From: Escherichia coli
Lineage (GTDB): Bacteria; Pseudomonadota; Gammaproteobacteria; Enterobacterales; Enterobacteriaceae
Strand: one strand, 5' to 3'
DNA length: 64,000 bases
Assembly: GCF_050920415.1 (NCBI RefSeq)
Contig: NZ_CP169309.1
Every line of letters starts with the position of its first letter. Position 1 is the first letter of the stretch. Below are positions 63,619 to 64,000 of this stretch, one piece after another. The notes beneath the pieces were generated by a model that saw nothing but the letters and a program-made list of their open reading frames with translations, had not been told where the DNA came from and did no database searches. Made by a program: the position numbers and the translations under genes.

Positions 63619-63625
63619 CACTAAC

Positions 63626-63650
63626 GCCCGCACATTGCTGCGGGCTTTTT
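63626..63650 (+). terminator. Rho-independent terminator of uspF
   Basis: gcccgca-cattgc-tgcgggc hairpin followed by TTTTT. Confidence 0.6.
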
Positions 63651-63793
63651 GATTCATTTCGCAAATGTGCTGACATTTTCCCCTCTAATCCGTACCATAC
63701 ACGCCACAGTTTTTATATCAGATTTCTTATGCTGGGCGTTCCGGCATGACGCATACTCTTCTGATGCCATATAACGAATTGAGTCGCTTTTAA

Positions 63794-64000
63794 ATGTCGC
63801 AAAATCAAGAAATTAGTAAGAAAGAACAATACAACCTGAACAAATTACAAAAACGTCTGCGTCGTAACGTGGGCGAAGCCATTGCTGACTTCAATATGAT
63901 TGAAGAAGGCGATCGCATCATGGTTTGCCTCTCCGGGGGTAAAGACAGCTATACCATGCTGGAGATTCTGCGCAATTTGCAGCAAAGCGCGCCAATCAAT
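63794..64000 (+). CDS. ttcA: tRNA 2-thiocytidine(32) synthetase TtcA, 5' portion only; gene continues beyond window end
   Basis: ATG at 63794; translation [69 protein letters not shown] contains the PP-loop SGGKDS motif. Confidence 0.9.

Follow-up and report, generated by a model that had tools for sequence, protein, structure and literature searches.

Contiguous uspF and ttcA in an Escherichia coli genome and the attachment site of Rac-family prophages

At the end of a 64,000-nucleotide stretch of Escherichia coli DNA (contig NZ_CP169309.1; hereafter the window), the segment 63619–64000 is almost certainly an unoccupied attB for lambdoid prophages of the Rac family, situated near the start of the ttcA coding sequence. 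The 5' end of the gene is the host's own, the att core is present in a single copy, and the two arms that flank Rac in K-12 are joined; together these facts identify the window as the attB configuration. The site, the four-residue change in TtcA and the two groups of strains have already been known since 2015 (PMC4632033), and the reading of the window arrives correctly at a polymorphism that was already on record.

Results

Layout of the locus

The genes ompN, uspF and ttcA lie in this order on the plus strand. ompN (porin OmpN; 61910–63043, +) is an ORF of 377 aa, which is annotated as ompN in the near-identical genome NZ_CP169399.1, and it lies upstream of uspF, as beside attR in K-12. uspF (universal stress protein F; 63184–63618, +) is complete and ends with the stop codon TGA at 63616–63618. 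Its product scores 303 bits against the NCBIfam equivalog model NF011581, above the cut-off of 166 and over the full length 1–144, and the annotation of NZ_CP169399.1 agrees with this assignment.

The start codon of ttcA is the ATG at 63794–63796, and the frame is open to the end of the window, which contains the first 69 codons (63794–64000, +). The product of ttcA is the tRNA 2-thiocytidine(32) synthetase, a member of the PP-loop ATPase family. The fragment of 69 aa matches the NCBIfam model NF007972 (TtcA) with 102 bits (E=3e-29), which is under the cut-off of 272 only because the gene is truncated. The rest of ttcA was taken from NZ_CP169399.1, which differs from the window at 4 of 64,000 positions. 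The TtcA of that genome is identical to that of the window over the 69 codons, and at full length it scores 513 bits, above the same cut-off. The PP-loop motif SGGKDS, of the SGGxDS class, can be read directly at residues 47–52 (63932–63949).

An earlier note on this DNA, made from the sequence alone, had claimed that uspF lies directly beside an uninterrupted 5' end of ttcA. The gene layout confirms it, with no prophage DNA between the two genes. The same note had placed the start of ttcA 175 bp after the uspF terminator. The distance is right and the reference point is not: the 175 bp are counted from the stop codon of uspF. The terminator itself, an intrinsic-terminator-like hairpin found by a consensus scan (GCCCGCACATTGCTGCGGGC followed by TTTTT; 63626–63650, +), is inside this spacer. 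Its hairpin occupies 63626–63645 and its T run extends to around 63650, and the ATG of ttcA is about 143 bp past it. The hairpin is identical in K-12, where it is on the uspF/ttcC side.

The uspF–ttcA spacer of 175 bp (63619–63793, +) is the same as the flank on the attR side of K-12, except for one extra T in the T run of K-12. It is unrelated to the spacer between intR and ttcA in K-12. The native promoter and ribosome-binding site of ttcA must be inside this spacer. The sole sigma-70-like match in it, CTGACA-17-TACCAT at 63670–63698, is weak (9/12 in the consensus scan). It was considered as the native ttcA promoter and dropped, being a consensus match only, and at 9/12 no commoner than in shuffled sequences.

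No RNA family was detected in 63619–64000 when the whole window was scanned with Rfam. The only matches above the gathering score in the 64 kb are MicC (61565–61685, −; 124 bits), which, as in K-12, has ydbK/nifJ on one side and ompN on the other, and RydC (27711–27774, +; 90 bits).

The att core and the junction

In K-12 MG1655 (NC_000913.3, 1411013–1435619), the order is ttcA–intR, the interior of Rac, ttcC–uspF, and then ompN. According to the annotation, ttcA is at 1411013–1411948 (−), the cryptic prophage Rac (23,060 bp) at 1411899–1434958, and the pseudogene ttcC (51 bp) at 1434958–1435008. The earlier note had described a Rac prophage of roughly 23 kb that is integrated at ttcA in K-12 and separates it from uspF and ompN, as this annotation shows.

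The window and the two Rac ends of K-12 were compared by a three-way alignment plus exact string checks. The interval from uspF through 63843 is the same as the uspF/ttcC side of K-12 (the left arm of attR), save for the extra T in the T run of K-12. The sequence from 63818 on shows no difference from the ttcA side of K-12 (the right arm of attL). The 26 bp at 63818–63843 (+), AAGAAAGAACAATACAACCTGAACAA, are the att core, here in its attB form. Exact string matching yields a single copy of the core in the window, and two copies in K-12, one at either end of Rac (1411899 and 1434959). Megablast alignments of occupied genomes stop exactly at 63843. The window consists of the left arm of attR, one 26-bp core and the right arm of attL, with the arms directly joined. 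As the junction is an exact match to a known junction, chance is no consideration. The comparison proposed in the earlier note, with K-12 ttcA, ttcC and the attL and attR of Rac, thus yields the att core, and its proposal of a native unoccupied attB is supported by the joining of both K-12 arms through this single core.

The same 26-bp position is annotated as attP in the phage record KU052037.1 (Rac-SA53). The phage collection was searched with an attP assembled from both K-12 arms on the phage side, and no record contained the two in one place. The matches were prophage-derived records, in which either the int-side arm is fused to ttcA or the other arm is seen alone. The circular attP is therefore without independent confirmation from that search.

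Host-type and phage-type 5' ends of ttcA

The first 8 codons of ttcA in the window (63794–63817, +) encode MSQNQEIS, which is identical to the corresponding part of K-12 ttcC. The N-terminus of TtcA in K-12 is MQENQQIT; residues 2, 3, 6 and 8 are changed. At the nucleotide level, 7 of the first 24 nt of ttcA differ between K-12 and the window, and the sequences upstream of the ATG are unrelated, because in K-12 this DNA has been supplied by Rac. Identity of the two 5' ends, which the earlier note had named as an argument against its own reading, is thus not seen. When the full-length TtcA of K-12 is compared with that of NZ_CP169399.1, the only differences besides these four residues are V98I and C290G, both of which are past the end of the window.

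In K-12, the first 50 nt of ttcA are within the annotated Rac feature, and the view that the K-12 N-terminus is derived from the prophage, put forward in the earlier note, is upheld by this and by the 7 differences in 24 nt. The translation of K-12 ttcC corresponds to the N-terminus of TtcA in the window, cut at the core and followed by a stop, and it is stranded on the uspF side. In occupied genomes, the host-type 5' end stays with uspF and the variant is found with intR. These facts indicate that the 5' end seen in the window is the host's own, and that the 5' end of K-12 ttcA came from the phage.

The surrogate 5' end is not the same in all Rac-like elements. It encodes MQENQQIT in K-12 and in Ecol_244, MKENQQIT in vB_EcoS-683R6 (stretch L009, 2647–2700), and MQENQKNTKKEIYNL in Rac-SA53 (KU052037.1; stretch L008, 1647–1700). 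Since the elements bring differing surrogate ends, there are several phage-derived N-termini of TtcA among lysogens. The identity between Rac-SA53 and the host core is limited to AAGAAAGA and ATACAACCTGAACAA, 8 bp plus 15 bp. These limits suggest that strand exchange may occur within the right-hand 15 bp of the core.

Frequency among E. coli genomes

To count the two junctions, a 301-bp query with the junction at its middle was made for each and searched in 5,426 complete E. coli genomes. The contiguous host junction, as in the window, is seen in 2,488 genomes (45.9%), and the intR–ttcA junction of the K-12 type in 2,906 (53.6%). The two classes together comprise 5,394 genomes. Empty ttcA sites are almost as frequent as occupied ones.

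A sub-class of the occupied genomes (1,042 of the 5,426) shows a different organization on the uspF side. There, the uspF flank breaks at the position corresponding to 63690, and a remnant of around 2.2 kb is present before ttcA, as in Ecol_244 (NZ_CP019020.1; stretch L004, 6591–8780). The native promoter region of ttcA and ttcC are deleted in these genomes. The remnant contains a frameshifted gene for a "metal ABC transporter permease", a DUF1627 fragment and a 231-bp integrase fragment, and the ttcA that follows has the phage-type 5' end.

It could be suspected that the contiguity of uspF and ttcA in the window is an artefact of assembly, in which two copies of the 26-bp core, each 50 bp long if the imperfect flank is counted, were merged and the prophage between them was lost. 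Repeats can collapse in principle, although nothing specific points to it here. A repeat that is 26 bp long when exact and about 50 bp when imperfect is far too short for collapsing an insert of 23 kb. The 5' end of ttcA is purely of the host type, with no mixture, and the identical junction is seen in 2,488 independent complete genomes, one of which has only 4 differences from the window in 64,000 positions. The probability of such an artefact is negligible.

Search for prophage DNA in the window and in the nearest genome

The interior of K-12 Rac (1411925–1434958) showed no match to the whole 64-kb window by blastn, and IntR showed none by tblastn. Neither intR, xisR, recET, kilR, racR nor any other Rac DNA was found at the ttcA site of the window in these searches. 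Rac DNA elsewhere in the window was considered as well and ruled out by the same blastn search. The statement of the earlier note that the Rac prophage is absent therefore holds for the ttcA site.

The nearest complete genome is that of E. coli MFDS1022581 (NZ_CP169399.1), a food isolate from South Korea. Over the final 25 kb of the window its identity is 100.0%, against 98.3% for the genome in second place. The whole window corresponds to 2671409–2735408 of NZ_CP169399.1, with 4 differences in 64,000 positions (13758, 28416, 30698 and 58614), and therefore stems from a near-identical strain or from another version of the assembly. In this genome ttcA is complete (936 bp). The genes after it are dbpA, ynaL, zntB, ynaN, dgcM and smrA, none of which is an integrase or phage gene. 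Tblastn with IntR against the 10 kb past the point corresponding to the window end gave no match. A prophage just past the end of the window, inside ttcA, had been raised in the earlier note as a finding that would overturn its reading; it can be rejected based on this genome, where ttcA continues intact into dbpA, the evidence being indirect in that the two sequences differ at 4 positions in 64 kb.

A Rac-like prophage might instead be integrated at another site in the same genome, in which case the absence of Rac would be true for the ttcA locus only. E. coli CFT073, which carries rac at a place other than ttcA (PMC4632033), is a precedent, and the nearest genome, with 5.22 Mb, has room for several prophages. 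However, the 64 kb of the window, and the 10 kb that follow in the nearest genome, contain neither Rac-homologous DNA nor an IntR homologue, and we consider a Rac-like prophage elsewhere to be improbable.

Other features of the window

In K-12, a block of about 19 kb (feaR-feaB-tynA-paaZ-paaABCDEFGHIJK-paaXY) is located between ydbL and ydbA. This block is absent in the window, where only about 650 bp (51955–52600) separate an autotransporter gene (46417–51954, −) from a gene of the ydbL family (52601–52927, −). The autotransporter gene is of the ydbA type and is one intact gene of 5.5 kb; in K-12, IS2D and IS30C interrupt ydbA. This region appears to be variable: the interval 39001–64000 is covered by at least 80% in one place in only 317 of the 5,426 genomes, and matches at more than 99% in only one.

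Based on the annotation of NZ_CP169399.1, the window also contains a gene for a CatB-related O-acetyltransferase (3698–4507, −), a truncated hicB that lacks a neighbouring hicA (11819–12055, −), an intact gap gene adjoining cybB (28504–29505, +), and a gene for a DUF2262 protein (32396–33253, −). The gap gene is presumably the counterpart of gapC, a pseudogene in K-12.

Discussion

Tyrosine integrases recombine the attP of a phage with a core site in the bacterial DNA. In the case of Rac, the partners of the IntR reaction would be the phage attP and the 26-bp core in the 5' coding end of ttcA (63818–63843). Such an integration would separate ttcA from its host promoter and its first 8 codons, and the host promoter and the first 17 codons would be stranded beside uspF as the ttcC stub. 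From the phage arm adjoining intR, ttcA would receive another start codon, 8 codons that differ slightly from those of the host, and upstream DNA of phage origin. Because the phage arm carries this substitute 5' end, ttcA would remain intact in lysogens as a chimera with a four-residue variant of the N-terminus. In the window nothing is integrated, and ttcA therefore keeps the promoter region of the host and the N-terminus MSQNQEIS. From the identity of its core with that of K-12, and from the work of Liu et al. (PMC4632033), the attB of the window is predicted to be a possible target for integration of Rac-type phages.

Liu et al. (Sci Rep 2015, 5:16074; PMC4632033) described Rac of K-12 as situated between ttcA and ttcC'. 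They showed by experiment that excision of Rac in K-12 alters four N-terminal residues of TtcA and regenerates the sequence of the window type, the change being due to the imperfect match between attL and attR. The N-terminus of the excised K-12 form is also that of E. coli and Shigella strains whose ttcA has no rac-like prophage. The form with the host-type N-terminus MSQNQEIS was named TtcA', and the two forms of TtcA behave differently under carbenicillin (PMC4632033).

The excision raises the question of whether the site in the window formerly held a Rac-like prophage, which was removed precisely by IntR and XisR so that attB was restored. XisR (YdaQ) is the excisionase, and Rac is still able to excise, the excision in K-12 regenerating exactly the sequence and the N-terminus of the window (PMC4632033). 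Besides, around 54% of E. coli genomes have the phage-type junction, which makes gain and loss plausible within lineages. Conservative recombination within an identical core leaves no scar, and therefore a site that was never occupied and a site that has been healed have the same sequence. Nothing specific speaks for past occupancy and nothing speaks against it, and we consider it rather unlikely.

The split of E. coli into 46% with the host-type and 54% with the phage-type junction swaps the promoter, the ribosome-binding site and four residues of ttcA. For this reason, regulation of the s2C32 modification of tRNA could differ between these two groups of strains, although we regard this as doubtful. 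If it were true, the expression of ttcA might, for example, be coupled to the transcription of intR and the prophage in lysogens, and knowledge of ttcA expression based on K-12 would be inapplicable to strains like that of the window. For annotation, the start and the N-terminus of ttcA in this genome should be kept as they are and not altered to match the K-12 version: K-12 ttcA is a chimera of host and phage, and the strain of the window has the host-native 5' end and promoter region. The ttcA site of this strain is free for Rac-type phages. The overall significance is small.

Comparison with known systems

Phages that integrate inside genes and carry a replacement for the gene end form a known class. 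An arm of their att site duplicates the end of the target gene, and the gene stays intact after integration. Usually it is the 3' end of a tRNA gene or a protein gene that is replaced in this way. Rac and ttcA resemble these systems, with an imperfect duplicate, so that the protein differs between lysogens and non-lysogens. Unlike the usual case, the 5' end of ttcA is replaced, and the promoter and the ribosome-binding site are swapped along with it.

Compared with the occupied site of K-12 MG1655, the window has the same flanks on both sides and the identical core, and the body of ttcA is the same from codon 9 through codon 69, where the window ends. The difference is that in K-12 the 23,060-bp Rac is present between two copies of the core, the first 8 codons of ttcA and all DNA upstream of them are from Rac, and the native 5' end is left as ttcC.

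The closest counterparts are the unoccupied sites described previously. The attB of K-12 delta-rac, as well as the sites of IAI1, HS, UMN026 and O103:H2 12009 (PMC4632033), have the same order of uspF and ttcA as the window. The attB of Liu et al. (PMC4632033) shows the same 26-bp core, the same N-terminus MSQNQEIS and the same difference of four residues, and only the strain differs from that of the window.
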